Origin: Stegostoma tigrinum
Taxonomy: Eukaryota
DNA length: 64,000 bases
Direction of reading: 5' to 3'
Assembly: GCF_030684315.1 (NCBI RefSeq)
Contig: NC_081382.1
Span: 12,091,267 to 12,155,266, forward strand
Under the pieces are notes generated by a model that saw nothing but the letters and a program-made list of their open reading frames with translations, made no database searches and was not told where the DNA came from. The translations under genes and the position numbers were made by a program. Positions within the stretch are counted from its first letter, which is position 1. Each line of letters begins with the position of its first letter. This document shows, piece by piece, positions 11,773 to 60,849 of this stretch.

Positions 11773-11960
11773 AACAAAAACAAAGTTGCTGGAAAAGCCC
11801 AGCAAGTCTGGCAGTCTATCACAGTTCTGAGCAAGGGTCACCAGATCCGAAACGTTAACTCTGTCTTTGCCTTCTCAGAAGCTGCCAGACCTGCTGATCT
11901 TTCTCAGCAACTTTGTTTTTGTTCCCGATTTACAGCATCCACAGTTCTTTTGGTTTTTAT
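11773..11960. mobile_element. PLE-derived fold-back mini-element with 15-bp TSD
   Basis: Inverted arms AACAAAAACAAAGTTGCTG / CAGCAACTTTGTTTTTGTT and an HHR-like motif at 11827-11856. TATGTGATAACAAGG is duplicated at 11758-11772 and 11961-11975. Confidence 0.8.
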
Positions 11961-12002
11961 TATGTGATAACAAGGTCTGGTGTGTGATGATGTGGCAATG
12001 AC

Positions 12003-12245
12003 TGGACAGTCTAATATTAGGTGTTGATTGTGTTCACTTATTAACTAGGACACCAGGCAGAGTTCCAGTGTTGTTTTAATTGTGGCCTGGGATGGTTAAT
12101 ACTCACATTATAAAACAGACAGAACGTTGCTTTATCATCTAGCAGAAAAGATGGCACCTCCTGCAATGCTGCATTTTCTCAATGCCAGAGTGTAATATCA
12201 GCGTTATTGTTGTACTCATGTTCTTTGAGTGAGACTTCAATCTTT
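12003..12245 (-). mobile_element. Deu-domain SINE (SacSINE1/AmnSINE1-like), old
   Basis: AAAGATGGCACCTCCTGCAATGCTGCA and AGGACACCAGG match the reverse complement of the Deu core as I recall it, and resemble 43878-44283. Confidence 0.55.
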
Positions 12246-12544
12246 AATGTCATGTGATTTCAGCTCAACACTGGACACTGGGGGTTGATTCACTTTCCAG
12301 CTGAGACAGCCTTAAGGCTTGCCTTAACTGGTTATGTTATAATAAAGTCAAGGTGTACCTTCTGATATGGAGATCCTTAGATAATTGACAATACAGCTGG
12401 TGAAGCTGAATGCCACTATTAAAATAATAAGAAAAGGAGCTTTTTCCTTTGCTGGACCAATTGTCATCAGGTCAGTTTGCTAGAAATACCAAAGTACATC
12501 GAAACCAAGATTTATATTGTATGTGAGGAAAGCATAGGTTAGTT

Positions 12545-13752
12545 ATAGAGTCATGGAGTCATAGATCTATGCAGGATGGAAATAGATCTTACAGTCCAAT
12601 TCGTCCATTGCAAATAGATATCCAAAATTAGTCTAGTCCCATTTGCCAGCATTTAATCCCTATCGCTCTAAACCCTTCCTATTCATACACCCACCCAGAT
12701 GCCTTTTTAATGTTGTAATTGTACCAGCCTCCACCACTTCCCCAGGCAGCTCATTCCATACAAGCACCACCCTCTGTGTGATAAAGTTGCCCCTTGGGTC
12801 CCTTTTAAACCTTTCCCCTCTTACGTCAAACCAACATTCTCAAGTTTTGGACTCCCCCAATGTAGGGAAATAACTTTGTCTATTTACTTTATTAATGCCA
12901 CTCATGATTCTATAAACTTCTATAGGGTCACCTCTAAGCCTCTGATGCTCTTGAGAATATAGCCCCCAGCCTGTTGAGCATCTCCCTATAGCCCAAACCC
13001 TCCAACCCTGGCAACATGCTCGTAAATCTTTTCTGAAACCTTTCAAGTTTCACAACATCTTCCTATAGGACGGAGACAAAAATTGAATGCAGTATTCTAA
13101 AGGCAGCATTACCAATGTCCTATACAGCCGCACCAGGAACTCCCAACTCCTATACTCAATACACTCACCAACAAAAGCAAGCATCCCAAATGCCTTCTCC
13201 ATTATCCCGTCTACCTGTAACTCTGTTTTCAATGAACTATGAACCTGCACTCCAAGGTCTCTTTATTCAGCAACATTCCCCAGGACCTTTCCATTAAGTG
13301 TATCAGTCCTGCCCTGGTTTGCCTTTCCAAAATGCAGCATATCACATTTATCTAAATCAAACTCTATCTGCCTCTCCTTGGCCCATCCACCCATTTGATT
13401 TAGGTCCCATTGTGCTGTGAGGTCACCTTCTTGGTTGTCCACTACACTTCCATTTTTGGTGTCATCTGCAAAATTAACAATCATACTTCCTATGGCCACA
13501 TCCAAATCATTTATATAAATGATATAAAGCATCGGCCTCAGTACCGATCCTTGTGGTATGCTACTGGTCACAAGCCTCTAGTTTGCAAAGCAACCCTCCA
13601 CCGCTACCATCTATCTCTTATCCTCGAGCCAGCTCTTTATCCAAATGGCTCGTTCACCCTGTTTTCCATATGACCTGTTAACTGTCTACCATGAAGAACA
13701 GTGTCTCACACCTTACTGAAGTCCACATCGATCACATCTACAGCTCTGCCTT
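12545..13752 (-). mobile_element. 5'-truncated CR1/HER1-like LINE (RT C-terminal half and 3' UTR), degenerate
   Basis: ORF fragments IPQGSVLRPMLY..FADDTK, LYRTLVMLPLEYC and LRGDPIEVYRIM, plus a (GACTCTAT)-like 3' tail. Confidence 0.9.
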
Positions 13753-14689
13753 CTTTAATGCAAATTACTTGGCCACTGGAGTCTGATTAATGTAGGACTT
13801 GCCATGTAGAATGCACCAGTTAATAATGACTGAAAATTAACCGATAAGCTTTCCTTAAATCTTAACTCTGAATGGTCCGGACATTATCCTGAGAAATGAA
13901 GCAGAAAGTGACTATAGCTGAATATGTTAAGGTGAAACCCACTGACCAGTGTGTTCTTACTGTACGCAACCAGGGCTCAGTAGATTAATTAACCACAGAG
14001 CAGACCCAACTGACAATTCTAAATTGGTTATCCATGTAATTTTTCACACACTCAGGATTATTTAGCAAGTACTGCAGCATCAAAGAATCACATATAATGT
14101 CGGACATGGCACAATCCTCAAATTCTGTACTACCAAATGATTATTTTATGACAAAATGAAACAAAATTATCGTAAATGAGATCCCAAAGTGCCCCCTGCA
14201 GATTGATTATTTTCCCATTTACCAGACTAGAAAAAGTGTGTGATTTGCTGTTGTCCATGTTGCTCCCAGCAATAAAATTTAAAGTTTCCCCCAAATGATT
14301 TGGCACAAATATATCCATTATTTGGTCATTAATGTCACTCAGCATATTTGTGTTATGTATCACATTATAGCATGACTGTTTGGTTGTCTGTTTGAAACTG
14401 ACAGCATTACTGGATATGAAATATCAATTGTTTTAATGGAGAAAATATTTGATAAAACAAGCTGTTTGTTCACACTCAGCCAGTCTGCATTCCCCAGGAT
14501 GGGTCTCACTTCTAAAGTCTGTAAATTTCCACACAAAATGATGCCAGATATTTATTACATACATGTACATATCAATTACATTTCTGTTAAAATGCAGCAG
14601 GCCTTTTAAAAAATTAGTTGTGTGTACAACACATTAAAATCATTGGGCCATGTCTGTGATTTGTCCTCCAGAGGTCTATTTAAAAAAAA

Positions 14690-17570: not shown

Positions 17571-17721
17571 ACTGAGAAAGCACAGCAGATCTGATAGCAT
17601 CAGAGGAGCAGGAAAGTCAACGTTTACTTTCCTGCTCCTTGGATGCTTTCTGACCTGCTGTGCTTTTCTAGCCTCTCACCTGTGGACTTTGTCTTCCAGC
17701 ATCTGCAGTCCTTATTGTCTC
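17571..17721. mobile_element. PLE-derived fold-back mini-element centred on AACGTT
   Basis: GGAGCAGGAAAGTC-AACGTT-TACTTTCCTGCTCC with inverted arms extending about 50 bp. The right side carries the tail CCAGCATCTGCAGTCCTTATTGTCTC. Confidence 0.75.
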
Positions 17722-18719
17722 AAAATTGTGAAAATCTGAAGTCACTGAGGCCATGATTTATATTTTAACAGATAAATGTGGATTCTCCAACTTAAGGCTG
17801 CAGAAGTTCAGGACCAACAACTATATGGTATGAAAATGAGGTAGCTCATTTGTAATGAATTCTATTCTTTAGACATTTTAATACTCAACAGGTGTAGTTT
17901 AGAAAAATAAGTCTCTTATGTCTTATCATTTCTTAAAGTGTTTTACATACTATGCATTACTTGAGTTGCAGTGAAATTGTTTTAGGCAAAGAGGCAGCCA
18001 TTTACCTTGACAGTGAAGCAGATTGTCAATTCAGAAGCAGGTTTTACTTGAACTCATCTACTTTCTCGACTCATTTACTCTCTCTCACGTAAGGGTTACA
18101 ATAAAAACTGAAAATAAAAACTTTGACATGTGTTGCACAGGCTGAACTAATGTCTTTTAAAAATTATTGTAACTTGAATGGAACTATGTGTTGTTCCACT
18201 CAATGGTTACACAAGAGTATGAAACTACTGGGGAGATGGGGTTTGATACTTTTGCGGGACAATTGTTGTTTGGTGCCCATGGACTGAAAAATAAATAAAT
18301 CATTCAGTAACAGCTTTGTAATCAATTTTAGATAACTGTTAAAGTCTACAACTGAATCAGATCAGTTAGATCTCTCTCTTTCTCTCCGTGAATGGATGAA
18401 AACTAACATTGAAAGACTGAGAAGAATAATTTCTAACTCAAGCAAAAGACCTTAAACCAACTGACCAGTTATTGAATTGAAGATTGCTATGGTCAGCAAC
18501 AATAAAATGTCATTATCAAAAACTCCAAAGGAATTGTGAGCATCACTTCATGGATTAAAATCTTGATCAATGGACTTTGTTCCTTTTGTCTGTATTTTTC
18601 ACCCACCATAAACCTTCAAATCTTCTGTCTCATCTGCTTTGAATGATTTATTTATTTTTTAGTCCATGGGCACCAAGCAACAATAGTCCCGCAAAAGTAT
18701 CAAAAGTATCTGCTTTGTC

Positions 18720-20670: not shown

Positions 20671-20758
20671 TAGAACATAGAACATAGAACAGTACAGCAC
20701 AGAACAGGCCCTTCAGCCCACAATGTTGTGCCGACCATTGATCCTCATGTATGCACCC

Positions 20759-28925: not shown

Positions 28926-31582
28926 ATGAAGTAAGTAGTTGTTGCAATATTGAACAATATAGATTATGGGAAAGCTGGCCAACACACTGGCTCAGGTTTT
29001 GTTTTTTATCAGTGGCAAACAAATGATACACGCTGCCTATTGATTTTTCTTGGGCTTGTTGGCAACAATTTATGGTCCCTCGACTCTGATACATTGCAGT
29101 GTGCTCTAGAGGGACCTCTGTGAACTGCGCAAACAAGGAACTATCTCCCTACGAAACAAGCAACTTGAAGAATTATCATTGTAACACTGAGTCTAATCCA
29201 GGAAACGACAGAATATTTAATTTAATGCAGAATAGTTTGCTGAAGGCAAAGGAAAGGTAAGAAAGATTGGATGAAAAGAGAAATGCAAAAACAAGGGAAA
29301 GAAAAAGTATGATTTAATTTTGACAATACCTCAAAGAAAATTTGAAAGAATGTAATGAAACATTTGTAAGAGTTCATTTTTACTGCTAACAAGATTGACA
29401 TTAATTAAAATTTACCATGCCATAAAAATTAGTCTATTATTGAGTGTACACAGCCTGAATTGCTCTGGCATATTTAATGAACTGATGGGTAAGATCAGCA
29501 ACTTTACACACAACATGTATTTTAATACCAAGTTTCGTGATAAGCCCAGCTATTAATAAGTTTGAAGAAGAGCACGTTAAATTGTACATTGACATCCTGA
29601 ACTCCACCCTTCATGGGCTGACATCTGAATTTGCTGTCTGATTTGTTCCATAATAATGATAAGCACTGACTGTCTCTCTGTTATCATCTGTTGAGTATGA
29701 GGGTCTTCACAGGAGGCATGAACTTTGATGTCCTGGGATGCAGAATTATGTATATCTGAAACAGACTAATATTGAATTATTACCCTGAAAATGAATTGAT
29801 CCCTTTAATTTGTCACTGTTACCTTTGTTCACTCTGTGAGATTGCTTCTCATCTGGTAAGAATACACCATGGGGTCTCATTTATCTCACCTGTGCTGATG
29901 TGACACTTGGCTCCCTGCAGGGATCGAGTGTGAGGGAAGAAAAAAGTGAATAATATGAAAAAATATTCTGCTCCTGGGCTTTGCTTCCATTCCAATGACT
30001 GTATATTTGATGGTTTGCTCCGCTGTAATTACATTCTCTTCCATTGTCTGCTCATGTATCTTTTAAGTCAAGTATTGCTGCTTATTCTACCAGCACTAAC
30101 TTTCAAATATTTTCATGGTAAATGATTATTTTACGCTATGCCCATCTTATCGAAGAGCCATATGGGAATCTGGGCTGGTCCAAAATACAATTACCATATG
30201 ACCTTGTGAAACACGTGGGATGGTGTAATCAGTTTCTGTGCCTCTGACTCACTGGACCCTGTCTTCTTGTTGTTGTCACTTCTTGTTCTAATATAGTAGC
30301 TGCATTAAATAGTGACAATTAAAAGTTAAAGCATTTGCAATTCACTGAAACTGAGTTAACAAGGGTCTTGGAAGGAAACCTTGGTAATGAGTCATAACTG
30401 AGGACTGTGCCAACTTTTTTTTCAGATTCCTCTGCTTAGATAATCATGGCCTTCATGTATTCTTTATGTATTGCAGCAGGAGGTAACAGAGGATGATATT
30501 AAAATAAATCGGGTTGTTTAGCTGCTGCTTGTACAATGATAAAGAGGGTCATTAAACATTCACAATGGAAGCTCACCAAGGAGCAAATGCACGTACCTGA
30601 CAGAATGCAGTGTTGAAATATTTACACAAACTATTTATAAAAACTGTATGCCTGAATGTTAGTTAGAGATATAATGCATTGTTGAATTAATGTTTCCCAA
30701 AGCCCTACTCACTGCCAATGTCCTTTTCTTCATGACAGTTAATTCTTCAATTCTACTCACTTCCTTGAATCTCTACAACTGTAATAGTTTTGCACCAATG
30801 GCTCCGAGACTCTGAAAGATGTAATGATGTATCTGGGGATGTCAGAAATGTCAGTGTTAAAAATATCAGTCCAAATGTTGATCACTTTAGGAATATAAAA
30901 TACTTGATGATTTGCAGTTGAGGCTCTTTAAATTATAATGGTGATAAAAAGAAAATAAATTAGATCTTATAGATCTTAAATTGTTGTAGAATAATGTTGT
31001 TGATCTCAAGTATTCTTTAAAGTAAAACTAATGCTCTTTTTGAGACACATCTTTGAAGCGATGTTGTATTTTCAAACTATTGCAGGGAGAGAAGTAAAAG
31101 GAAATAAAAGGTTTCTAGCGAAACATAATAATTTTTATTCGGAGGATGCTTTGTTTTCAGCGATACACTTTCGAACTAAGTCACTCTGTGAGCTGCATCA
31201 CTATTTTGTTGCTGTTATTGCTATGAAAAATGGCGTCACTGATGCATATTGCACTCCCTGGCATTGGGAGGGTGGTCAGCTTCAGACCTCAAATTTTAAT
31301 TCAGGGCCAGAGGGTGTTGATTCATTAGGATAATGTTAGCATGATGCAAATAATTTATAATGCCCAGAAGAATTTTTCTGAAGCCTATTTTTTTTTCAAA
31401 GTGGTAAGTATACAATATTTTAAAACTTTTCCAGATGGCTTTGGAGTTTAACAAGCTTGTCTACTTGATTCCTCTTCAGTATCTACATGTACTGATGATT
31501 TGGAGCTGTCTGATTCTGCCCTTCAGCACCGCAGCTGATTAAACCTGGATATGTTGAAGGCTCTTGAATTTTCAATAACGAT

Positions 31583-31828
31583 CAAGAACAGAAGTTGCTG
31601 GAAAAGCTCAGCAGGTCTGGCAGCCTCTGTGAAGAAAAAATCAGAGTAAACATTTCGTGTCCAGTCACCCTTCCTCAAAACTACCACAATTCTGAGGAAG
31701 AGTCACCGGATCCGAAACGTTAACTGATTTTTTTTCTTCACAGTTGCTGCCAGACCTGCTGAGCTTTTCCAGCAACTTCTGTTTTTGTTTCTAATTTACA
31801 GAATCTGCAGTTCTTTTGCTTTTTTCTC
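31583..31828. mobile_element. PLE-derived fold-back mini-element with two opposed HHR motifs and 11-bp TSD
   Basis: Arms AACAGAAGTTGCTGGAAAAGCTCAGCAGGTCTGGCAGC / GCTGCCAGACCTGCTGAGCTTTTCCAGCAACTTCTGTT. The + strand HHR is at 31692-31721 and a degenerate - strand HHR at 31649-31677. Flanks are TCAATAACGAT / TCAATAACAAT. Confidence 0.8.
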
Positions 31829-34800
31829 TCAATAACAATGTTTGTTATCTGTTAAGGGACAATTAAAAGGAGACTTGTAACACTGGTTATAGATCTTATA
31901 AACATTGCTCTTTAAGCAAATTTAATTAGGGCCTATAGAGCAAGAACCATTGCAGTAACATTCAACTACTCACCTTAAGTTGGACAAAAGAACTGACTTG
32001 TAAAGGGGCATGATGAATTAAAGTATAAACAACAATTGGAAGATAACTTGTGTGCAGTCAATCAAAATTGAGACAAATTTACAAACAGACTGATTAACGA
32101 TCAATAGCCTACTGGGAAATGGATTGTTTGCACTGAAAATTCATTAAAATAAATGAGGTTGGGTAAGTTAACTGGGTTTGAAAGCGATGATGCGTAATAT
32201 TGTGGTTCAAACAGCTCTGCGAGAGAAAGGCTTGCATTTTTTTCATAGAATAGCAAGGGACTCCTGGTGTTAAACTATCCAAAGCCATATGGGACTGTTG
32301 AAGTGATGTATTAGCAGTTACAGATTCTCAATTAAAAGCATGTAAAAATCAAGCAGCTTTGGTCTTTTAGTATTTAAATATTTTGGGCTGGGTTTTTATG
32401 AAAAATACAGGTTCTTGTTTGGAACATGGCATCAGCCTTAATTGATCATATGGCAATATTAATTTGAAGAAAATTGCTTTATGCTGGTATGAAAATTGTT
32501 GATTATATTTTAATATTGACTGTATTTTAAAGATGTCAATATGTTTAGAAATAAATGGATTGAAAGTATATATAATATAATATTGAAGAGATTTATAAGC
32601 AGTGTCCTTGGGGATATCCATAAAAAGATATTGAAAACACATATCTTTTGTGCAAAAGCCTGTTTCTTGTGCAAAATATTACATAATAATTTTGACTGAT
32701 CTCAAAATAAAAGAAAATTGTTATCCAATTACTGTATTTTGAAACTTCAACACAATTCAATAAAATGATCTAAGTATCAACGACATGAATATTAACTGTT
32801 AATACTGACTTACTTCAGTCTACCTTCCATTTTTATTCAACTTCAACAGCAATTTTCCTTTCTGCAGCAACTACTACAAGAATACCAGAAACCAATTTGT
32901 TTAGCTCAACAGAAAGACTGTGATTTTTTTTTACTTTTTACTGATTTTGGAGATCTGTAAAATGGCAATTTTCAGCACAAGATAAGGGTTGTGTTAGTCA
33001 GTTCACTGGCTGCAACCACTGATGTACTTAATATTATTGGGAGGCCATATGGCCACTGTGAATGTTTGGTTGACACAATAATGGAGCATCCCAGAATATG
33101 GAATACCAACTCAAATGTCAGAAGAAAATGTTAATGGTAACTTATTCATTCTCACATGTGGATCCCTTCAACTGATCACTGTTGATAAACACTGCAAACT
33201 GCCTGCCTTTGTATCTACAATAAGGTTAGGGTCAGTTTGGCTGTGCAAATAGGTGAGCCAGAAGAGAAGGATAATGAGCCTGCAAAAAGCAAGAACTGTG
33301 AAAGGAGAGGACACTGAGGTTGAGGGAAAGAATTTTGAAAGAGTTCAAAGTCAATTAACCCACAGAATGACAATACTCTGAAGAGTAAAAACAGATAAAA
33401 GGAACACTTTACTATCAAGAGGGGAAACCCAAGCTTTCGTTGGTGAGCAGCGTGCAGGGGAGGGCAATAGTCCAAAAAAAGGGCAGCTCCAGTGGACACC
33501 TTTCCATTTTAAATCATTATTTAAAAAATAGGTATGGTCCACAGTGAGGCCAGAAGTGGGACCTCTAGAAGTGGTATTTCCCTACAGAACTACAACAAAC
33601 TTGCACATGAAAGAACAATGACAAAAAGTCAACATTTATTTTATGTTGCAGGTCCAGTTGTTGATAATATTTTGCTGACACAAGAATGGAGATTTTTTAG
33701 TCCATATGTTACACCATCATGCAATATTGGTTCAACAATCTACTGTTTGGAATCTCTTTGGCATCAGAGATTTTTCAAAGTGCAATGTCTGGAATTTTGC
33801 AAGGGAAGTGGAGAACCATTTTCCACGTGTATGATATTGAAGCAGAAAATAAATCAGGAATATGAACAAAACATCATCGCAGTATTAAGAAGGCAGGCCT
33901 AACACTAATCAAGAAATGCTGTTCGTCAAGAATGGCAATTACATTTCCAGGACACATATTCCAAGAACAAGGAGTCATGAAGGATCCAAGGAAGACAAAA
34001 TCCATCGATATTTTTTCCAAAACAGAAGTTTCAAATGATGTACAGAATTTGTTCAGCATGGTGAATCAAGTGGGAAAGCTTATCCCGAACTGAGCCAGTC
34101 TAACTTAACCCCTTGGAGACTTTTTGGTAAAAATAGACCAGTGATGATATTGGAATCAGGAACTGACTGCAGCTTTATAACTGTTTAAAAAGGAATAGCT
34201 TTCTACTGATGTTCCAGCATTTTACGATCTAAGCTTATTTCACTATGGTAACCACAGATGACTCTTCACAGGAGATGTGCCCAACAAAGTGAAAATTATT
34301 GGAAAAGAAAACCTATTAATCTCCTAAATTTCAAAATCACCACCCAGTGCACGTGAAAATGATACTAAAAATATTTTTTATAGGTAACAGACAACCCTAA
34401 GTCACAATGCATCTGTGAATGTGCAGGCTAACTCACCTGCACATGTGCAGATACAAAGTAAAATTGGAGTCCCTCTAGTGCATGTCATTTTACTTTACCC
34501 TGGATAATGCACCAACAGCAGTTCCAAACAGCACCAACCTGTAGTGGGATTATATGGACAGTGTTGTCTCTGTTCTGGGAGCTGCTATCCTGTCACTCTA
34601 CAATGGCATGGCACTGCAAGCCTCTGTCTCTACAAATCCACTGTTTCTAAACCACCTAGTGATGGTGTTAATAATAACTGCAACCATACATGTTATGTTG
34701 ACAGCTTTCATGGAAACTGAATCGTCCATTGAAAATATGGAGACGAAAGCATTCACAGTTACATTGCAATGCAAAAGGTTTGCAGTTGATACCCACGGAC

Positions 34801-44283: not shown

Positions 44284-44959
44284 GCCACCACAAAGAAATA
44301 GTACAACGTTGAATCCCAGCTCTATTGACATCGTACGATTTGTTGAGTTGAGATCAGTGGCTGATATAGTGGAACAAAATTCTGCCATGAGTTACCAATG
44401 TATTATAAGAGTCACTACCATACAAGTACATCTTCACACTTATTTCGCTGATCATTAAGGTAAAAATGCTACTTGCTCGTCGTGTTTGTAACTTTCTTTA
44501 TCCACTGAACTTCATTTCTCCTGAGATGTCAGGAGGTACATAATATTAACTGCTAAATAATGCAATCACTTATTGTGAAAACTCACTAATACCCTTCTGT
44601 TATTCGGGTCAAATAACTAATGCTTACATATTTTAAAGTGAATATGGTGCTTTCAAATCACAGGAGAAATGATTTCAGTGGAATGGAATACTTAAACTTG
44701 AAGCACAAGTTTGGAAATGCAAAAATCAATTTAAATGGGTTATTTGTAGAAGCTAAAGTGAGTATAATTTAAATATTTAGGAGATGTAGCTAGAGAGAGC
44801 TCAGCTGTAAAAGAAACATTACATTATGAATGAGAATAATTGTTAATGTGCCATGTTTTTAGCTAAAGAACTTAAGACACAAAAATGCACATTTGTCAAA
44901 CTTAAAAGACTGATCTTTGCCCTGCACCCATCCCAATTCACGCAAATGTAAAACAAAGA

Positions 44960-45112
44960 GCTGCATGTGCTGGAGATCAGAGACAAAAAGAGAAATTACT
45001 GAAAACATCAGTGGGATGGAAGCAGAGTTATTGGTTCAAGTCTGGTTCTGATGAAGGGTGGCTTGACTCAAAATGTTGAGTTTCTCCAGTAACTTGTCTT
45101 TTTTTCCCAGAT
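44960..45112. mobile_element. Highly decayed PLE fold-back with HHR-like motif
   Basis: Tail-like CTGCATGTGCTGGAGATC, then CTGATGAAGGGTGGCTTGACTCAAAATGTT at about 45048-45077, with weak inverted arms. Confidence 0.5.
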
Positions 45113-46590
45113 CACCCAGAAATTGGCTGTCCAATATGGGACAATATCTTTTCCGTGGTGAAAGCTAGCTAAGTGCCATGGCCCATAATCTGCGATAGTA
45201 TCAAAGTTAACAAGAGAATTGAGATAATTCAATAAGTCATTTTATAATGTTATCCATATTTCAAGTTTGCGGATTGTAGTTAAAAAGGAAAACAAAGGAA
45301 TGTTACAGTTTTGAGCTTCTGGAAACCTATGTATTAGTGTTTGAGATGGAATAACTTGAATACAGAAAATGTGCTTAGAGGAATGGCATGTAACTTTATA
45401 CTTTGAGCTTTGCGCGGAAAAGAAAGGACATCTTAAAGAGACAAAAATAAGGATGTATATGTATTCAAACAAAATGGAAGCTAGAGATAATAAAATGATC
45501 TTTGATCAAAAATCTCTTTCTTGGGTCTACCTAGTGCCTCATACTAGACAATCTCAAAAATAATGTCTTCAAATGCTAATGCAATTCGTTTAATAAAATT
45601 TGCTTTACACACCACTCCCATTTTTGCTGAGCAGAAAAGATAATGGAATAAACATTTTTGCCAAATTGTGTGTAGCCTGCTGCTGGTTGTTTTCAGCAAT
45701 CAGTTAAATTGAGTGCAAGATTCCACTTATTCCTGTTGATTTTTAGGCGTTCAGCTCTGACCGAGTTGTTGTACTCTCATTTCTGCCTTAGATGATTGTG
45801 AATTCAATACACAACCCAACAACTTGACTGTTTGATGTAAGCTGATCCTCCAGAGAATGATTTATATGTTTGTATTGATTGGGGAAACAGTGCATTGTCA
45901 GAGGAATCCTCTCAGATTGAATTAGATCCTATGGCATTACTTAATGAAGAGCCAGAAGGTGTTCTTTCCAAAACTTTGTTATTCACAAATGCCTACATTA
46001 AATTATCTGTTTGTACATTTCATTATTGTTTGCAGGAGTTTGCCGCTTACCTACAACAATGCCATCTTCAAAAATAATCAATTGACTCTAAAGACATTGT
46101 ACAAATACAAACTGTCCTTTCTTCTCTGAAAGCTGTTCTTGTATAAAACTATCCCACTGCAGGTTCATTATTTGTACATGTTTTTAACACTGACTCATAA
46201 GCTGGCTTCCAGTGCTAAACCAGCCTGAATGATAGAAAGGAAATATTTCAGAGTGAGATAACAAAGTGTAGAGCTGGATGAACACAGCAGGCCAAGTAGC
46301 ATCAGAGGAGCAGGATCTAGACCCTTCTTGAGAAATGGGGGAGGAGGAGGGGGTTCTGAAATAAATAGGGAGAGAGGGGGAGGCGGACAGAAGATGGATA
46401 GAGGAGAAGATAGGTGGAGAGGAGAAAGACAGGTCAAAGAGGCGGGGATGGAGCCAATAAAAGTTGAGTGTAGGTGGGGAAATAGTATCAGAGATAATGG
46501 GAACTGCAGATGCTGGAGAATTCCAAGATAATAAAATGTGAGGCTGGATGAACACAGCAGACCAAGCAGCATCTCAGGAGCACAAAAGCC

Positions 46591-46618
46591 GACGTTTCGG
46601 GCCTAGACCCTTCATCAG
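46591..46618 (-). ncRNA. Minimal hammerhead ribozyme motif, core intact
   Basis: Reverse complement CTGATGA-A-GGGTCTAGGCCC-GAAAC-GTC. Confidence 0.8.
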
Positions 46619-46842
46619 AGAGGGGGATGGGGAGAGGGAGCTGGAATAAATAGGGAGAGAGGGGGAGGCGGACCGAAGATGGAGAGTAAAGAAGATAGGT
46701 GGAGAGAGTATAGGTGGGGAGGTAGGGAGGGGATAGGTCAGTCCAGGGAAGACGGACAGGTCAAGGAGGTGGGATGAGGTTAGTAGGTAGCTGGGGGTGC
46801 GGTTTGGTGTGGGAGGAAGGGATGGGTGAGAGGAAGAGCCGG

Positions 46843-48731
46843 TTAGGGAGGCAGAGACAGGTTGGACTGGTTTTGGGATGCAGTGGGTGGGGGAGAAGAG
46901 CTGGGCTGGTTGTGTGGTGCAGTGGGGGGAGGGGATGAACTAGGCTGGTTTAGGGATGCAGTAGGGGAAGGGGAGATTTTGAAACTGGTGAAGTCCACAT
47001 TGATACCATATGGCTGCAGGGTTCCCAGGCGGAATATGAATTGCTGTTCCTGCAACCTTCGGGTGGCATAATTGTGGCAGTGCAGGAGGCCCATGATGGA
47101 CATGTCATCTAGAGAATGGGAGGGGGAGTGGAAATGGTTTGCGACTGGGAGGTGCAGTTGTTTGTTGCGAACTGAGCGGAGGTGTTCTGCAAAGCGGTCT
47201 CCAAGCCTCCGCTTGGTTTCCCCAATGTAGAGGAAGCCGCACCGGGTACAATGGATGCAGTATACCACATTGGCAGATGTGCAGGTGAACCTCTGCTTAA
47301 TGTGGAATGTCATCTTGGGGCCTGCGATAGGGGTGAGGGAGGAGGTGTGGGGACAAGTGTAGCATTTCCTGCGGTTGCAGGGGAAGGTGCCGGGTGTGGT
47401 GGGGTTGGAGGGCAGTGTGGAGCGAACAAGGGAGTCACGGAGAGAGTGGTCTCTCCGGAAAGCAGACAGGGGAGGGGATGGAAAAATGTCTTGGGTGGTG
47501 GGGTCGGATTGTAAATGGCGGAAGTGTCGGAGGATGATGCGTTGTATCCGGAGGTTGGTAGGGTGGTGTGTGAGAACGAGGGGGATCCTCTTGGGGCGGT
47601 TGTGGCGGGGGCGGGGTGTGAGGGATGTGTTGCGGGAAATACGGGAGACGCAGTCAAGGGCATTCTCGATCACTGTGGGGGGAAAGTTGCGGCCCTTAAA
47701 GAACTTGGACATCTGGGATGTGCGGGAGTGGAATGTCTTATCGTGGGAGCAGATGCGGCGGAGGCGGAGGAATTGGGAATAGGGGATGGAATTTTTGCAG
47801 GAGGGTGGGTGGGAGGAGGTGTATTCTAGGTAGCTGTGGGAGTCGGTGGGCTTGAAATGGACATCAGTTACAAGCTGGTTGCCTGAGATGGAGACTGACA
47901 GGTCCAGGAAGGTGAGAGATGTGCTGGAGATGGCCCAGGTGAACTGAAGGTTGGGGTGGAAGGTGTTGGTGAAGTGGATGAACTGTTCAAGCTCCTCTGG
48001 GGAGCAAGAGGCGGCGCCGATACAATCATCAATGTACCGTAGGAAGAGGTGGGGTTTGGGGCCTGTGTAGGTGCGGAAGAGGGACTGTTCCACGTAACCT
48101 ACAAAGAGGCAGGCATAGCTGGGGCCCATGCGGGTGCCCATGGCCACCCCCTTAGTCTGTAGGAAGTAGGAGGAGTCAAAAGAGAAGTTGTTGAGTGTGA
48201 GGACGAGTTCAGCTAGGCGGATGAGAGTGTCGGTGGAGGGGGACTGGTCGGGCCTGCGGGACAGGAAGAAGCGGAGGGCCTTGAGGCCATCTCCATGCGG
48301 AATGCAGGTGTACAGGGACTGGGCGTCCATGGTGAATATGAGGTGTTGTGGGCCAGGGAATTGGAAGTCCTGGAGGAGGTGGAGGGCGTGGGTGGTGTCA
48401 CGGACGTAGGTGGGGAGTTCCTGGACCAAAGGGGAGAAAATGGAGTCCAGATAGTGGAGATGAGTTTGGTGGGGCAGGAGCAGGCTGAGACGATGGGTCG
48501 GCCAGGGCAGGCAGGTTTGTGGATTTTGGGAAGGAGATAGAAACGGGCCGTGCGGGGTTGGGGAACAATGAGGTTGGAGGCTATGGGTGGGAGGTCCCCT
48601 GAGGTAATGAGATCGTGAATGGTGTTGGAGATGATGGTTTGGTGCTCGGGTGTGGGGTCATGATCGAGGAGGCGGTAGGAGGTGGTGTCGGAGAGTTGGC
48701 GTCTGGCCTCGGCGATGTAGAGGTCAGTGCG
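46843..48731 (-). pseudogene. PLE RT + GIY-YIG endonuclease, 5'-truncated, one frameshift near 48450
   Basis: LPKIHK, GRPIVS, DAQSLYT, GVAMG, RYIDD, FLDL; Cys linker CNRRKCYTC; VVYCIHCTRC..YIGETKR. Confidence 0.95.
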
Positions 48732-50232
48732 CCTCATATTCACCATGGACGTCCAGTCCCTGTACACCTGCATTCCGCATGGAGATGGCCTCAAGGCCCT
48801 CCGTTTCTTCCTGTCCCGCAGGCCCGACCAGTCCCACTCCACCGACACTCTCATCCGCCTAGCTGAACTCGTCCTCACACTCAACAACTTCTCTTTTGAC
48901 TCCTCCCACTTCCTACAGACTAAGGGGATGGCCATGGGCACCCGCATGGGCCCCAACTATGCCTGCCGCTTTGTTGGTTACGTGGAACAGTCCCTCTTCC
49001 GCACCTACACAGGCCCCAAACCCTACCTCTTCCTACGGTACGTTGATGACTGTATTGGCGCCACCTCTTGCTCCCCAGAGGAGCTTGAACAGTTCATCCA
49101 CTTCACCAACACCTTCCACCCCAACCTTCAGTTCACCTGGGCCATCTCCAGCACATCCCTCACCTTCCTGGGCCTGTCAGTCTCCATCTCAGGCAACCAG
49201 CTTGTAACTGATGTCCATTTCAAGCCCACCGACTCCCACAGCTACCTAGAATACACCTCCTCCCACCCACCCTCCTGCAAAAATTCCATCCCCTATTCCC
49301 AATTCCTCCGCCTCCGCCGCATCTGCTCCCACGATAAGACATTCCACTCCCGCACATCCCAGATGTCCAAGTTCTTTAAGGGCCGCAACTTTCCCCCCAC
49401 AGTGATCGAGAACGCCCTTGACCGCGTCTCCCGTATTTCCCGCAACACATCCCTCACACCCCGCCCCCGCCATAACCGCCCCAAGAGGATCCCCCTCCTT
49501 CTCACACACCACCCTACCAACCTCCGGATACAACGCATCATCCTCCGACACTTCCGCCATTTACAATCCGACCCCACCACCCAAGACATTTTTCCATCCC
49601 CTCCCCTGTCTGCTTTCCGGAGAGACCACTCTCTCCGTGACTCCCTTGTTCGCTCCACACTGCCCTCCAACCCCACCACACCCGGCACCTTCCCCTGCAA
49701 CCGCAGGAAATGCTGCACTTGTCCCCACACCTCCTCCCTCACCCCTATCGCAGGCCCCAAGATGACATTCCACATTAAGCAGAGGTTCACCTGCACATCT
49801 GCCAATGTGGTATACTGCATCCATTGTACCCGGTGCGGCTTCCTCTACATTGGGGAAACCAAGCGGAGGCTTGGAGACCGCTTTGCAGAACACCTCCGCT
49901 CAGTTCGCAACAAACAACTGCACCTCCCAGTCGCAAACCATTTCCACTCCCCCTCCCATTCTCTAGATGACATGTCCATCATGGGCCTCCTGCACTGCCA
50001 CAATGATGCCACCCGAAGGTTGCAGGAACAGCAACTCATATTCCGCCTGGGAACCCTGCGGCCATATGTTGTCAATGTTGACTTCACCAGTTTCAAAATC
50101 TCCCCTTCCCCTACTGCATCCCTAAACCAGCCTAGTTCATCCCCTCCCCCCACTGCACCACACAACCAGCCCAGCTCTTCCCCCCCACCCACTGCATCCC
50201 AAAACCAGTCCAACCTGTCTCTGCCTCCCTAA
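48732..50232 (+). pseudogene. PLE RT + GIY-YIG endonuclease, inverted second copy, 5'-truncated but uninterrupted (~500 aa)
   Basis: DVQSLYT, GMAMG, RYVDD, YIGETKR. There is no natural start; the frame begins at the inversion junction. Confidence 0.95.
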
Positions 50233-50454
50233 CCGGTTCTTCCTCTCACCCATCCCTTCCTCCCACCCCAAGCCGCACCCCCAGCTACCTACTAACCTCA
50301 TCCCACCTCCTTGACCTGTCCGTCTTCCCTGGACTGACCTATCCCTTCCCTACCTCCCCACCTATACTCTCTCCACCTATCTTCTTTACTCTCCATCTTC
50401 GGTCCGCCTCCCCCTATCCCTATTTATTCCAGCGCCCTCTTCCCATCCCCCTCT

Positions 50455-50482
50455 CTGATGAAGGGTCTAGGCCCGAAACATC
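50455..50482 (+). ncRNA. Minimal hammerhead ribozyme motif (GUC changed to AUC)
   Basis: CTGATGA-A-GGGTCTAGGCCC-GAAAC-ATC. Confidence 0.7.
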
Positions 50483-53400
50483 GGCTTTTGTGCTCCTGAG
50501 ATGCTGCTTGGCCTGCTGTGTTCATCCAGCCTCACATTTTATTATCTTGTAGGTGGGGAAGTAGGGATGAGATAGATCAGTCGAGGGAGGAAGGACAGGT
50601 CAAGGGGGCGGGAGGAGGTTAGTATGTAGGAGATGGGAGTGGGCCTTGCAGTGAGAGGAGGGGATAGGTGGGAGGAAGGACAGGTTAGGGAGGCGGAGAC
50701 AAGCTGGGCTGGTTTTGGGATGTGGTAGGGAGATGGGAGATTTTGAAGCTTGTGAAGCCTGATGCTGCCTGGCCTGCTGTGTTCATCCAGCTCTATATTT
50801 AGTTATCTCAGATTGTCCAGCATCTGCAGTTCTGTTTCTGATTGGGATGTGTTAACTCCACTCTAAATTAATATTAATTACAATTAGAAATTGCAGTTCT
50901 CAGAGAAACAGATCTGTAGTTAGTTTTAATCAACCTATTCATGTTACGAACCCAGGCATGTTGTGATATACTTCCAGATCAGGTAGGTCTTAAGCCCAAG
51001 ACTCCAGTCTCTGTGTTAGGGGTGGTACCACTGCACCACAGGAGCTCATTAAATGGTTGTTCATCTGTTGTAGCCAATAATTAACTCGGATTTAACAAAT
51101 TGACTATTGGTAATTCAGAGACAACTTTGCAAAAATGTACATTCAATTTTCCATTGCAAAGATCTTAAATACATTGACATATGTACGAAAGGAGTCATTC
51201 ATCACATGGAAATATGTATATTTGCACTTCGATTTTCAGTTGAACGGGGAAAAAATCAACTGACTACTTTGTAAGCAATAGTTTGCCATTTTCTGTAACA
51301 GCCAGCTGCTAGTAGGGTACGGTTATTTTGTTGTGGATTGCATTATGCAGTTGATGCTCTTGTCTCTGTTATATTGCATGTTTGAAGCAAACCATACAAT
51401 CACAATAAGAAATTTGTGTCTTTTGAAATGTGCCCATCTTGTCAAGGCAAAATAATTCTGAGTATTACTGCACATTAAGCATTGGCACATTGAATGAAGA
51501 TGGAGTCAGTGCAGCTGCAGTAGGTTAAGCATTCGTGGGTGTAATACTGATAAATTGGCAGCTAAATGTGTCATCTTTTGTGAACGAGAGGGGCAATTTG
51601 TATGTAGGACTTAAAGATGAACACTAGGTTTATGTGGTATTTTTGGTCATTGTTCACCAGTACTTTTTCATTGAGATTAATTTTATTTAACAATTAGTGT
51701 GTTGTAAATAATTCAGCATGAAATCTACTCTTCTGCTAATAGTACTTTGTGTAATTCCTTTTACATTGATAGGATTTATACATTCTGTGAATATACTGAT
51801 GCCAAGTGCCAGCCACAGCTTAGTGATAGCTCTGTCACCTGTGAGTTAGAAGCTTTCGGATGCTTTCAGAGATATCAGCACATCTTAACGCTTTCAAGGC
51901 AGTGTTGAGAGGACACTTTGGACCTCATAAGATTGTACGAGGTGTTAAATAAATGAGAATTCTTATTTTTCTGTTAGGCCCATTGCTTTCCATGAGCGGT
52001 CTCTCATGCTACCACAATTCCAGACTTCTTACTTCAGCAGGAAACTGGTCATGATTCATCACAGTACATAGCCCATTCCATAATTAGACCTATTTAATTA
52101 TGAATCTACTCTCCCCTATTAGCATTTTAAATCTAAATATGGTTCCATTGAATCATTGTTCATGCAGCAATGTCAGCCTCTTTACAATCCTGTGGCTGTA
52201 GTTGTATTCTGATAGATAATTCACACTGTTTCATTCTCCACAGCTCATTTATTGATTCGTTGAGCATCTTCTGTTTATTTGTACTCACCTAGAGAAGTTT
52301 GTTGCCTACTTGACTTCATAAAGGAAAAGTTCGCCTGTTATTCTTACTTACCAAGTCACCAAATGGGACTGACATGCAGACGATTAGAAACACAAAATTT
52401 GACCACTCCCTGTCTTCTTGACTCCATTTTTCCCTCTCTTTTATTTTCCTCTGATGCTAAAATATCTCAACAAAAGCTAAAAGTCTGAAACACGTCAAAC
52501 AAGTCAAAACAATGTTCCGCCCCTTAGCATTGCATTCTGATCGGTTTCAAGTAAGTATTCACTTTTCTACTTACAATAATACAATGGTTCCTGCCATAAC
52601 TATTCCATCTTCGAAACAATCCATTCTCCAGCAATTTCTCATGAACATAATTTTTGAAACAGTCCTTCTAATCAATTGAAACATTTAAATTGTTGACCTA
52701 TTGTCACTGACCTTCAAACAGAAGACATAGTCTTTTTTTTAAAATGGTCAGAATAACCTCATTAAATATCTTCCTATCTTCTCTGCTCCAAAGAAAATCA
52801 TCACAGAATCTAAAATTTATCAGCATATTCAGAATTTCTCAAATTTGGTAGCATCTTGATAAATCTTTATTATGTAGCATGAATACCATATTTCTGTTCT
52901 GTACAGAACTCTGATAATGAATTAATCATTGTCTTACACAGTTTGTTCTTCGTTCATGGATCTTAATTCTACTTGCATGGATACAAAGTCCAAAATGTCA
53001 CAGTCTTTGTTTTTATATTCTACCTTTAATTAAATCTTTAATGCACAAAAATATAAAGAAATCACATTTCAAAGGACTGAATTGGAAAGAAACATCTCAT
53101 CATTCAGAAATCTCAGTGAATAGTGAAAAAGATTTTGTTAGTAGTTTAACTCATTTTCATATTTCTTACAGTGTCATTTAACATTGCCAGTTATAATTGT
53201 ATTTGTTTTTTATGTTGTATATATTTCATCTACATAGCACCCAGAAATCAATGACTTGTAATGTCCAGGGAACTGGATGGTACACTGGTAGCTAGACAGC
53301 CACATTCAAACTTGTTTAGAAGCAAATGTGAGGCTTGTTGCAAGATTTTCAATTGGTTGCTCAAAATAATTAAGGGTCACTCAAAAATAATAAAGACAGT

Positions 53401-54740: not shown

Positions 54741-54784
54741 GATGCTAGGCAGCTCATTATCTCCAGATCTGGTGCGTGACTATT

Positions 54785-55375: not shown

Positions 55376-55631
55376 GAACAGAACACTTTAACAGCATTAG
55401 GCCATTGTCCACTGTGTACAACAAAAATGATTTCATGGAAGCTGTGGCAATCCACATAAATGAAAGGGGCAATGGATTTTTGTATCCAAGATCTTGATGA
55501 TAAGGCGTTCATGTTTGTTCTCTACAGAACTTTGAATGTTGGACGGAACAGCAACATTGATTGTTTAAATTGGCTTTAAATTGACTGAACAGGCCAATTG
55601 GTCAAAACAGAGCCAGACTTTACACTAAACC

Positions 55632-55826
55632 AGGCTATAGTCCAACAGGTTTATTTATAATCATAAGCTTTTGGAGCACTGCTGCTTTATGAGGTGAAAT
55701 CACATGGCCTGAAGAAGAAGCAGCACTCTGAAAGCTTGTGATTTTAAATAAGCCTGTTGAGCTACAACCTAGCATCATGAGACTTTGGACTTTCTCTACC
55801 CAGTCCAACACCAGTACCTCCACATC
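55632..55826. mobile_element. Fold-back mini-element of a further PLE-like family with opposed HHR motifs
   Basis: Arms CAACAGGTTTATTT..ATCA.AAGCTTT / AAAGCTTGTGATT..AAATAAGCCTGTTG. CTGAAGAAGAAGCAGCACTCTGAAAGCTT lies at 55709-55737, and there is a one-sided tail. Confidence 0.7.
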
Positions 55827-58049
55827 CTCAAAACAGTATATCTGAAATCTAACAGGTAATGGAGTCAACTTAGTTTATGTTTTTAGTGCAAAAGCGATGG
55901 TCTCAGCTGCACAGATATTGCATTGATAATGGAGTTCCACCACATGGTAAAATTCCAACATCACTCCCTGTTTTTGGAAGAGCTTCCAGGCCTCAGTGAT
56001 GATACTAAGATTGGCTACAGTTTCAGTGAAATGGAAATCAAGCCATCCACTAAAATGGAAAGTGCATTTGCATGGAAGCTGAGTGATTACAGGTTCACAT
56101 ATGAAACACCTAAGGTTGACACAAACTATGGGAATGATGGAACTGAGCTATAGCATGAGGATGCAGTTTAAAGAAAATAGAAGCTTTTTTCAATTTGAAC
56201 TTTGACCTTTGTAAAAGGAAACATGAGTTATGTTTACAGACACACATTGTTAATACATGAGTTACATTGAAGCATGGGCTCTATCAGCTCTTGAATCATC
56301 TGAAGTTGAATTTTATAAAGATAGTCTCAAGTTTGTTCTAAGTATAGTCTCTGATTTTTTTTAACGTACTTTTGTGAATTTTGCTAAGCAGTTTCTTTTT
56401 CATATTAAGGTTTTCATTGTCTAGACACAGATGTTTCAGCATCTTGTTTTGGGAATGACTAAAATTCTATGAACAAAAAGATCAGTTGCAATCACTTCTG
56501 ATCTCTCAGATCTAAATCTGTTCAACGGCTAGAAATAATCTTGTGACTCTTACAGAATAAATTCATTTTTGTGAGTGTTATGGGGAAGAATAGTTCTGTG
56601 ATTTTTGTTAGTGAGGTCAATGAGTTATTGTGTCATGTTTGGACTCACAGCAGAAAATTTCCAACAAAAAATTTGTCATAAGAGAATGAAAGTCAATATT
56701 TCTTAAAAAAATATGGTGGACACTTTTTCCAGAAAATGTAGGTGTGCCATTTATAATGAAAAGATAATAAAATGCCAAGTGTGGAAAAATGCTGTACCTA
56801 CAATGTGGCAAAAGATAGTTGGCATAGAAATACTCTGAGGGAAATGTTGTCACAAATAGGATCAAAAATTACAAAGACCAGAAGTGTACAGTTTTGTCCT
56901 GAGCAACAAACAATGGACTGATTCTTGCCATATTTTGGCAAAGAGTAATTTTCTTTCAGTTCAATGAAGGGTTTCTCCTCATGAGGATGAGGAGGATTTC
57001 TTGCCTGTCATCCCCAGTGGACCTCATTTCATGGGTTCCACACCCCTGTGTTGATCTACTCATCTGATACTTACCCAACTCTCCCAGTTATCACTTCTGG
57101 GATGTCCCGTGATATACTGGCATCCCTGACAGTGGCACCATCCTAGAATCTTGACCATATGCTCAGTCAAGAGTTGGCAGTCTAGAGTTGCTGTTTGACA
57201 TCAATGTAGTGCACAGCAGCACAAAACAATGCTGACTCTCCTGAAGCAGAGGTGGCATACCTGAAACATCCCTTTACACAGGGCTGCAAGTTCCTAGATC
57301 TATCTCTGTTTAGGCACAAACTCACATATCTTACCTGTCCTTAACCACATTTCATCTTATACCCTTCTAAGTCAATGCTAATGTTCCTCTAATGCCCACA
57401 ATAACCAACCATGATGTTCTTATTTAATCTGGGGCCAACACAAACAAGGGTGCTGTCAGTGACCTCAAATAATTCTTCTTTTATACATAAATCACCAAAA
57501 TAAACCAACGGAAGCTGCATTTTCCTTTTGGAACAAAAACAAACAGTTTGTATGTCAACCGTTTTACATTCAATGACTGGCCAGTGCACTCAAATATGAG
57601 CTAGAGGAACCTGGTGTCTGAAATGAAAATAGAAATTGTTGAGCCGCTTCACTAGAATTCAATTCTGTCCAGCACCATGCTGCACAGCGCGCATTCCAAC
57701 TCTGCAGCCACAGCTGTGGTGATTATCTATCTCTGCCCCACCCACATCTCCCCATATCCTCCCATTGGTTTCATTATTTTCTCCCTTCACCATTCCTGTA
57801 CCCACCCAGACTGCCCCAGATACCCACCCCTGACTTTCATTCTCCTGACACCCAAATCTGTCCGTGACCCAGTGATCTGACTGATATAGACTGACAGCCC
57901 TGACTAATGACTGACTGATCCTAAAGCATGCTGTTTATTTCCCCACGTATTTTGGTCTTTGTTCTCTTCTAAATGTGCTGTTTTAAATGACAGCATTGTG
58001 CCAAGGCTGTTGGCAGCTTCCTGTCACATGGTGGCTATTCATAGGTAAA

Positions 58050-58766
58050 GTTACTTGGAAGCACCCTCGCCTACACCTCCCCTCTCACATCTGTCCAAAG
58101 CCTCAAACAATCCTTCCAGATCCAGCAGAGATTCATCTACACTTCATCTCTTAATCCTGATGTAGTATCCTCTTTATCGGGAGAACAAATGCAGACTTGG
58201 GAATGGTTCATGGAGCAACTGCATTCTGCACACATCAACCGACCTGACCTTCCAGTTGCCAGCCATTTGAATTTAATCTTCCCATTCTTCTGATTACACG
58301 TCCATCCTTTGCTTCCTCCACTGTCAGAGTCAGGCCAAATGCAAAATGGAGGAACAACACCTGATATTTCACCTTGGGAGCTTACAGCCTGATGGCCTCA
58401 ACATTGACTTCACCAGCTTCAAAATCAATCCACTCCCAGCCTTATTTCATGTCCACTCCTCCACCTCCTGAGTGAACCTAACCTGTCCATCTTCCAACTC
58501 ACCCATCCACCCCACTCTCCCCATGGATTAATCACAATAACCCCCTACCCACTTCCACCTATCACCATCTCTCCTATTGTTCTGCCAGCCCCACCCCATT
58601 CTCTCTATTATTTCCGGGCTCCCCTCTCCGCCCCTTCCCCAGTCCTGATGAAGGGTTTCATCCCAAAACGTTGAGTCTTCTGCTCCACTGATGTCTGACA
58701 TGTTGTGCTTTTCCAGCCTCACACCTATAGATTCTGGCTTCCAGCATTCACAGTCTTATTATTTCT
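58050..58766 (+). mobile_element. Old PLE 3' fragment (GIY-YIG remnant, terminal repeat, HHR)
   Basis: KMEEQHLIFHLGSLQPDGLNIDFTSFKI. CTGATGAAGGGTTTCATCCCAAAACGTT lies at 58645-58672, followed by the tail CCAGCATTCACAGTC. Confidence 0.85.
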
Positions 58767-60609
58767 GAATAATTTAGGATTCAAGCAGCATAACTAAATG
58801 AGACACTCATCTAACTTTGAATAGCTATTTAACTAACAGCCAAAGTTACAAAAGTTACACTTATCAGTATCATAAGACTTAAAACTATCATAATACTTCA
58901 AAGTATATCCAATACTCAATTTTTGAAAAGAAGATATCTTCCATGCTGAAGGCAAGACACCTCAGGTTTTCATACCAAAAGAAGTCCTGAACAAAATCTC
59001 TCTGAAAACTGCTAAAACTCAGACAGAAGCCTTTGGCTAAGTCCTCACTTTTTAGATCAATCTAAACCAGCCTGGGGCAAGTGTGAGTAAATGTACACTC
59101 CAGTTGCCTCGGGATATTTGAAACACTTAAAGCATGACACTTGAAACCCTTATATTGAAGTCTTTTTGAGATTAACCACTGAAGTTATTCTTAAAACCCA
59201 ATTTCTCAACAATATGGTCATGCTTAATTTAATTGGATTTTGTACATGATATCCCAGTGTAAGACCGTAGAATGTTCCATAAAGTTCATCTTATCTTAAA
59301 ATGATCAGTCCCATTTATGAATATATTTGTGTTCTCTGTACAAAGACAGTCCTGGTTAATTAGAATTAATTGGAGGTGTCTTATTTAATTCATTCTCACA
59401 GGCTCTTCATTGTAGTATTAATAAAATCTGTTTTAAATTGCATATAGTTGTTAAGATGCTTTACTTTTAAAAAGTAACAAAATAAAATACAGCATTTATT
59501 CACTGCTGATTATGTGTCGCATATTCTTAAATTAAATGGAAGTTATATGTTGTTAATACCGTCACAAACTGATGCTCGTTTTAGTTTGTCGGTATCCCAA
59601 GACCCCAAAAAAGATCGTCTTTCAAATATAGTGTATTAATTCAAAAAATAATGACCTCCTTCTCATGTAAGGGGTTGCAAAATACATGATTGCAAAAAGC
59701 CTTTTAAAATTACACAATTAACTAAATCTTAAACCAGAATAGGAAACTCCTAAATTACACAAATTCCCTGAACCCTAGGAGAGCATGGGGATCATTATTG
59801 TTTGACAAACATTGACTTATTCTCAGGTTTACGACCCTGATCCTCAAATTTCTTTTTGTCATTTAGTTGAAGTTTCAGATGGCACATTGAAGTTGATGTC
59901 AAAATTTGTTGTCCATGTGTGGCTTCATCAAGAGGAGACTCCCAAGGCATGGGAAATGATTAAGAGATTTGAAGATCAACATCACTGGTTTCCTGAACTC
60001 ATCATCGTTTTTAAAGAACAGATGAAGGTATTGTGCCTTGGGAGCCACATGAAATACAACCTTAGTATTCTTGCTGTTGGGTAAAAGGCCCTTTTTCTCA
60101 TATGTTTTGGGAAGGAGTCAGCAATGATCTGGAGAGGAGCTTTTAGAGCAATTGCACATGCAAAAATCAGCTGCATATTGGAGCTCAATTACTGAAGTTG
60201 AAATAAATGTGATTTTAGTTTTAGATTGAGCAGTAGGTTGAAAGGTGTCCTATCTGTTCTGTAGATTATCTCCACATCTGTGAGCAGCTGAGAAGATGGA
60301 GAAGATAGTCAATATGGCGTTATATTCTGTTTGACCAGAACATGTGATGGTTCTGTTGATGAGGCGTACCACTTGCATGTCTTCTTGGAACAGGCAGAGA
60401 AAGGTGACAAACTTTAGAATTTGGCAAATTTGAAGAAGATACTGAATAAGCACAATCAAATGTTATCCTGAAATCAAAAATGTTCATATACACCAGTTTG
60501 TATTATTTCTTGTATTTTATTAGATTTGCTGCAAGTGAAGATCATATTGGTGCCCACTAATTAGGTAAAGCATGCATTGTGGCTCTGGAAGGAGCAGTTG
60601 CAGGGAGGA

Positions 60610-60824
60610 GAGAGATAATGGGAACTGCAGATGCTGGAGAATTCCAAGATGATAAAATGTGAGGCTGGACGAACACAGCAGGCCAAGCAGCATCTCAGGA
60701 GCACAAAAGCCGACGTTTCGGGCCTAGACCCTTCATGAAGGGTCTAGGCCCGAAACGTCGGCTTTTGTGCTCCTGAGATGCTGCTTGGCCTGCTGTGTTC
60801 ATCCAGCCTCACATTTTATCATCT
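60610..60824. mobile_element. 215-bp PLE fold-back mini-element, near-perfect 89-bp arms, 15-bp TSD
   Basis: Palindrome 60647-60824 centred on TCA|TGA (60735/60736) with one mismatch. CAGTTGCAGGGAGGA occurs at 60595-60609 and 60825-60839. Confidence 0.95.
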
Positions 60825-60849
60825 CAGTTGCAGGGAGGATATGATTGAG

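Follow-up and report, generated by a model that had tools for sequence, protein, structure and literature searches.

The ends of Penelope-like elements (PLEs) form short hairpins in a 64,000-nucleotide stretch of the genome of Stegostoma tigrinum (assembly GCF_030684315.1, contig NC_081382.1, positions 12,091,267 to 12,155,266; hereafter the window). Inverted arms of a PLE terminus, or pseudo-long terminal repeat (pLTR), meet head to head at all six sites that a preliminary description of this DNA had picked out, and a tail is confined to one of the two arms, as that description held; the hairpin at 44960 is decayed. Five of the six map cleanly to a family, and the proposal of at least three sequence families is confirmed: A with its relative E, B, and C. 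Clear target-site duplications (TSDs) had also been reported; exact ones flank 11773 and 60610 (15 bp each), 55632 (9 bp) and 31583 (8 bp, or by eye 11 bp if one mismatch is allowed). The window further holds a 4 kb head-to-head copy of family A with part of its reading frame. Here, we propose that the hairpins are dead, one-off insertions of the end of an endonuclease-bearing (EN+) PLE, each built from two short complementary DNAs (cDNAs) joined head to head, a reading to which we assign a probability of roughly 0.7.

Hairpins and a long copy in the window

Positions along the pLTR are numbered from C3 of the hammerhead CTGANGA, which is set to 0; the cut is predicted to precede +28 in family A and +30 in family B. 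The minimal hammerhead motif is present in the pLTR, where it was called by a motif scan against a published descriptor (PMC4209133) and seen in long copies; its catalytic activity is predicted only. In common with the minimal PLE hammerheads of that report, it has a type I core, a palindromic ACGT, a long helix II and a short helix I. An Rfam scan of the window returned no match to a hammerhead family, and minimum-free-energy folding of single motifs gave no hammerhead fold, which is a weak test of a motif thought to act as a dimer.

Inversion points had been placed inside the motif or within about 25 nt of it (table 1). Hairpin 11773 reaches that limit, as one arm ends ~25 nt downstream of the predicted cut. 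The arms of 17571 end at +21 and +22 and its centre, ACGT, lies immediately 5' of the predicted cut; weak, sub-threshold Rfam matches to microRNAs also fall on this hairpin. Local alignment of the arms of 55632 stops at +6 and +22, and by eye they extend to about -7 and -1. Hairpin 44960 has suffered an internal deletion, gives only a weak self-inverted alignment and was missed by the census pipeline. The youngest, 60610, is a perfect palindrome on TCATGA. Elsewhere in the window, a family B arm (11362-11543, minus strand) stands head to head with a family A arm (11575-11666, plus strand) across a gap of ~30 bp, and no TSD was found around them.

Table 1. Coordinates of PLE-derived features in the window. 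Arm ends are given in pLTR numbering; RT stands for reverse transcriptase and ORF for open reading frame.
Feature	Position	Strand	Remarks
Hairpin 11773, left TSD	11758-11772		15 bp, exact copy at 11961-11975
Hairpin 11773, tailless arm, family B	11770-11814	-	5' end +55
Hairpin 11773, tailed arm, family B	11822-11959	+	5' end -5; hammerhead motif from 11827; tail ~11926-11959
Hairpin 17571, family E	17577-17726		right-arm tail; no TSD found; centre ACGT at ~17620-17623
Hairpin 31583, family B	31577-31824		arm ends -1 (left, tailless) and -10 (right, tailed)
Hairpin 31583, TSD	31572-31579 / 31829-31836		8 bp exact; by eye 11 bp with one mismatch
Hairpin 44960, decayed, B-like	44950-45115		left-arm tail; hammerhead motif at 45048 (+); no TSD
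Head-to-head family A PLE, 4 kb	46487-50549		left-arm tail only; junction within RT region
Minimal hammerhead core, native context	46591-46618	-	C3 at 46618; predicted cut after 46591
TATA-like TATTTAT	46646-46652	-	at -34; the -4 pile-up lies 30 nt below
Stop-to-stop frame, 604 aa, 5'-truncated PLE ORF	46843-48657	-	RT, then C-terminal GIY-YIG
Hairpin 55632, family C	55607-55826		right-arm tail; exact 9 bp TSD, 55602-55610 / 55828-55836
Hairpin 60610 (youngest), left TSD	60595-60609		15 bp, exact copy at 60825-60839
Hairpin 60610, tailed arm, family A	60611-60736	-	5' end +3
Hairpin 60610, tailless arm, family A	60735-60824	+	5' end +3; arms overlap by 2 nt

The 4 kb copy is the long end of the same continuum as the short hairpins. 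Its arms are 1,820 nt long and 98% alike, and they are flanked by a 17 bp TSD with one mismatch (46469-46485 and 50548-50564). The 604 aa frame matches RVT_1 (E = 1.5e-4, aa 104-230) and GIY-YIG (E = 2.4e-3, aa 464-502), both below the Pfam curated cut-offs; an RT and a GIY-YIG domain within one frame mark family A as an EN+ PLE. This link to an ORF is shown for family A only, families B, C and E being tied to none. The elements may belong to the clade Penelope/Poseidon, a name given here by resemblance. The copy sits inside an older family A copy (46255-46480 and ~50565-50757), after which follows a short inverted tailed arm (50761-50832).

Abundance and layout across the genome

The hairpins were counted in 135 blocks of 10 kb (160 requested; 1.35 Mb) and the window, together 1.414 Mb; the blocks were laid at round coordinates on large contigs and are not a formal random draw. 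BLAST against real long copies was used to place the arm ends, which leaves a few nucleotides of noise in old copies. In all, the census found 452 ends of pLTRs, and 83 pairs stand head to head (family A 56, B 17, C 7 and E 3), with a mirrored duplicate pair at locus L044 counted within the 83. Extrapolated to a genome of 3.2 Gb, the 78 pairs outside the window correspond to ~185,000 pairs, or 187,700 if the window is included. The tail is one-sided in 71/83 pairs, the insert measures 300 bp or less in 73/83, and a TSD of 9-18 bp (mode 14 bp) flanks 49/83, while the same TSD finder returned 0/83 at random places. Across all copies, the 3' ends fall into two groups, near +92 and near +127. Junctions are mostly unique, with one repeated end-position pair among the 71 one-tail pairs; in 32 young pairs they comprise 14 with microhomology, 12 with insertions and six that are blunt. 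The earlier view is right in that the hairpins derive from PLEs, were made by a retro mechanism and inserted independently, with junctions clustered at the hammerhead. The two members of the L044 pair (8543-8718 and 9329-9525) are the same hairpin in mirror image ~600 bp apart, likely a local inverted duplication.

Identity as a miniature inverted-repeat transposable element (MITE) or other DNA transposon was considered and ruled out by the tail, which lies outside the repeat at one end, and by a TSD that varies from 9 to 18 bp. Such hairpins are nevertheless mistakable for MITEs or microRNA precursors, which poses a risk for annotation.

The layout of inverted pLTRs with a one-sided tail, a TSD and junction palindromes is already published for EN+ PLEs (PMC3846280, PMC8557442). 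The hairpins are therefore not the under-described system they had been taken for, nor are they a new kind of mobile element. In Pen2a_Av of Adineta vaga (PMC3846280; scheme in PMC8557442), head-to-head inverted, 5'-truncated pLTRs likewise carry a 30-40 nt tail at one end, a TSD and a junction palindrome. The hairpins here differ in being very abundant and often just two pLTR ends, and neither 5'-end peaks nor an extra G is reported in the accessible parts of those papers. Poseidon of Anolis carolinensis (PAc; PMC11167929) offers a second comparison: two internal RT start sites bracket the tail, both target strands are cut and extended (in vitro there), and a hammerhead lies at the front of the pLTR-ORF junction. 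The bimodal 3' ends at +92 and +127 match these two start sites and two-strand extension. The ORF of PAc starts inside the hammerhead, whereas the long frame here starts after the tail. As far as its available text goes, the PAc paper finds no RNA ends at the cut and leaves inverted copies unexplained. Hammerhead pairs 100-700 bp apart on opposite strands were already noted in Schistosoma (PMC4209133), but in the portion of that report at hand they are not analysed as insertions, and cleavage in vivo is left open. The hairpins are relevant to how PLE inverted copies form and to whether the minimal hammerhead cuts in vivo (PMC11167929, PMC4209133, PMC8557442). A literature search whose scope lay outside Repbase, Dfam, most subscription papers and the supplements of PMC11167929 and PMC4209133 returned no shark PLE hairpins, no PLE cap G and neither the start-site peak nor the second 5'-end peak in PLEs; the value added to the published layout is a count of 5' ends with two peaks.

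One cDNA or two

The preliminary description had reverse transcription turning back on its own product. Under that proposal, published for inverted junctions of PLEs (PMC3846280), one cDNA folds back and primes its own copying, either at the RNA end or ribozyme stems or close to them; one arm is afterwards shortened by the endonuclease, hence the one-sided tail. The lengths of the arms speak against it. The tailless arm is longer in 26 of the 71 one-tail pairs, the tailed arm in another 26, and the two agree within 3 nt in 19; the 27 young pairs divide into nine, eight and 10. A fold-back copy cannot outreach its tailed template, and so tailless arms that are often longer argue for two cDNAs joined together. 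The hairpins L210 and L222 combine arms from different young subfamilies, and the tailless end is the common 3' end of solo copies. By subfamily typing the arms match in 66/72 pairs, and the four further mismatches are ambiguous.

Two sets of observations pull the other way. Arms usually carry common variants, being identical over 12 diagnostic nucleotides in 54/85 cases against 19.5% of random pairs, and some junctions far upstream of the hammerhead are nearly symmetric (-51/-53, -148/-146 and -477/-473). Shared variants and near-symmetric junctions fit two cDNAs drawn from one RNA, and in some cases they also fit fold-back, as do the palindromic AG and AGAG extras at -4 described below. On balance, we consider fold-back an unlikely origin of the hairpins, and prefer the joining of two cDNAs.

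Read from the DNA, events would run as follows. Transcription from the pLTR promoter, with its TATA-like box at -34, would yield a capped RNA that begins at about -4, where the hammerhead has its 5' edge, and the arm would be the 5' untranslated region (UTR) of the mRNA. The element protein would cut both target strands ~14 bp apart, and each cut end would prime reverse transcription at one of two internal sites (~+93 and ~+128), so that one cDNA lacks the tail and the other has it. On the front pLTR of the RNA, both cDNAs would run off the 5' end after ~100-130 nt, often with a G added opposite the cap; on a minority of RNAs they would run off at the ribozyme cut (+28) or stop earlier. End joining would then unite the two cDNA ends, either through microhomology or with a few bases added. 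L1 twin priming is similar, in that both target ends prime cDNA and the ends join by microhomology. L1 inversions, however, join two different parts of one RNA, whereas here a single segment would be copied into both arms, beginning at two fixed sites.

Self-propagation had been raised as well, with some hairpins acting as non-autonomous units that are transcribed and re-inserted whole. Identical junctions do recur: the TCATGA centre is found at six independent loci, -4/-4 and AGCT centres are also repeated, and 21 of the best 30 matches to hairpin 60610 are one near-identical copy. Those 21 copies, however, share at least 1.8 kb of flank (six compared) and were therefore amplified within a larger repeat, while the recurrent junctions occur on different subfamily backgrounds. 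The census holds a single repeated end-position pair, and short hairpins lack the TATA-like box. None of the sampled loci combined a shared junction and diagnostic variants with different flanks, and propagation as units is highly improbable. Matches from the DNA search with 60610 were kept out of the census because they are biased to its own junction and 21 of the 30 loci are one amplified insertion. This insertion (L002-L009, L011, L015-L025 and L027) has at least 21 copies, with flanks 99% identical and many on small contigs; in four loci, Rfam gave nothing at gathering score for the repeat that hosts it.

Positions of the 5' ends

The 5' ends of the copies do not follow a smooth truncation curve, and DNA-transposon ends were likewise looked for and not found; instead, the ends pile up between +1 and -8. 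Stop rates were tabulated for 423 copies, the 29 of 452 near block edges being left out. Family A hairpin arms stop in this interval at a rate of 8.2 per 100 nt, against 1.4 and 1.0 in the flanking intervals, and solo copies at 3.2 against 0.8 and 0.14. The interval contains 30 ends of hairpin arms where 5.0 are expected, and 33 ends of solo copies where 8.7 are expected; family B shows the same pile-up at the hammerhead. Genome-wide counts were taken as exact matches to young family A arms that start at a given position after two non-reference bases. They amount to 9,239 at -4 and 3,552 at +28, compared with 112 at -10, 396 at +23, 970 at +12 (a control whose own palindromic prefix is excluded by design), 1,603 at +36 (a control in which ~43 of the 100 matches listed are an older subfamily variant) and 981 at +55 (a control in which 31 of the 100 listed are a tandem array).

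The main peak coincides with the 5' edge of the hammerhead motif and, being present in solo copies, is not specific to hairpins. A TATA-like motif lies 30 nt above it, at -34/-35, in 66/85 long A copies and 4/6 long B copies; in long C copies it is found at -40 to -43 (4/4). The base that precedes -4 is G in 82 of the first 100 matches listed, as judged by eye. Among 30 loci at -4, unexplained bases are present at 20 junctions and end in G at 18, at nine others the partner or the target has a terminal G of its own, and one is undecided; a few of the 'extra' bases could be partner sequence that has mutated. With A as the start base, G outnumbers the palindromic T by 28:9 in an older A subfamily and by 11:3 in family C. 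In full-length L1 insertions, an additional G at the 5' junction is described as the sign of a capped RNA (PMC11702581), and the hairpins share it. Given the extra G and the position 30 nt below a TATA-like box, the -4 site is likely a capped transcript start rather than a ribozyme block. At locus L030, the ATG of the long frame lies downstream of the tail; a reading frame that begins after the tail makes the arm a likely 5' UTR of the element mRNA.

Several points weigh against a capped start. Family C ends are scattered over -5 to -9 by eye, rather than falling on a single base. In the older A subfamily, 63/100 bases before -4 are A, which a cap does not explain. The base expected from snap-back synthesis in young family A is also G, and several extras there read AG or AGAG, such that snap-back synthesis contributes at -4 in this subfamily. 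The promoter of D. virilis Penelope is internal and TATA-less (PMC2377424), and a TATA promoter is thus not general to PLEs.

Locus L030 also contains a compound insertion (1498-2306, G000:C14) with an 11 bp TSD. It consists of an inverted tailed arm, then an arm with its tail and 430 nt of the ORF start, and then a second pLTR that begins at -4 after a G. This structure suggests that synthesis ran off the 5' end of the RNA and then jumped to another template.

The preliminary description made the ribozyme the turning point, through either its fold or its cleavage end. A folded hammerhead that blocks the RT could set both peaks with neither cap nor cut. Solo copies stop across the motif (+25 to +2) at 0.8 per 100 nt against ~0.1 upstream; +28 is also the 3' edge of helix I, the first point of encounter; and in families A and B the 5' edge of the motif falls on the proposed start site. 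The main peak, however, lies on the far (5') side of the fold, where nothing would be left to block, and a block predicts neither the extra G nor the 30-nt spacing from the TATA-like box. We regard such a block as improbable, and the fold is not supported as the cause of the main peak; the cleavage end fits a minority class of junctions, those at +28.

At +28, the prefix in 61 of the first 100 matches listed is that of a perfect palindrome with AGCT at its centre, and 13 of the 14 AGCT-prefix loci inspected are palindromes. On contig C1, these AGCT palindromes occur at 0.68 per Mb, whereas palindromes on ACGT, which lies 5 nt upstream, occur at 0.05 per Mb and those on GGCC, downstream, at 0.10. 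Each of the three sequences provides an equal 4 nt of microhomology, and so end joining or later deletion alone is insufficient for the excess at +28. The palindromes are found on several subfamilies, and would be explained by two cDNAs that end at the cleaved RNA 5' end or stall at the 3' edge of helix I. Other findings tell against cleavage. The census alone has only a weak bump at +26 to +31 (7/81 arms), non-palindromic ends at +28 (~1,400) are only ~1.5 times the +12 and +36 controls, and helix I of family A measures ~2 bp by eye. For PAc, the accessible text describes cleavage as dispensable in vitro and reports no RNA-seq ends at the cut (PMC11167929).

It is tentatively suggested, at somewhat less than even odds, that germ-line self-cleavage by the hammerhead has left its record in the thousand or so perfect palindromes at the predicted cut, both cDNAs having been copied from cleaved RNA, and that the -4 class records the capped start, which would make the hairpins a fossil map of both RNA 5' ends. 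If true, this reading would provide in vivo evidence for cutting of the insertion RNA by minimal PLE hammerheads and for two cDNAs made by the PLE protein in each event. The ~185,000 stubs also yield predictions at the level of single bases, namely that RNA ends are capped at -4 and bear a 5'-OH at +28.

Tandem arrays that derive from the PLE terminus, their repeat units measuring 46 bp and 208 bp, are present at G000:C1:187869899-187870798, G000:C1:188284615-188285192 and G000:C2:58043058-58044747. The window also contains a 463 bp element at 18242-18704, beside a stretch of N, whose 65 nt inverted ends are 95% alike and unrelated to the PLE ends; it is possibly a DNA-transposon derivative.

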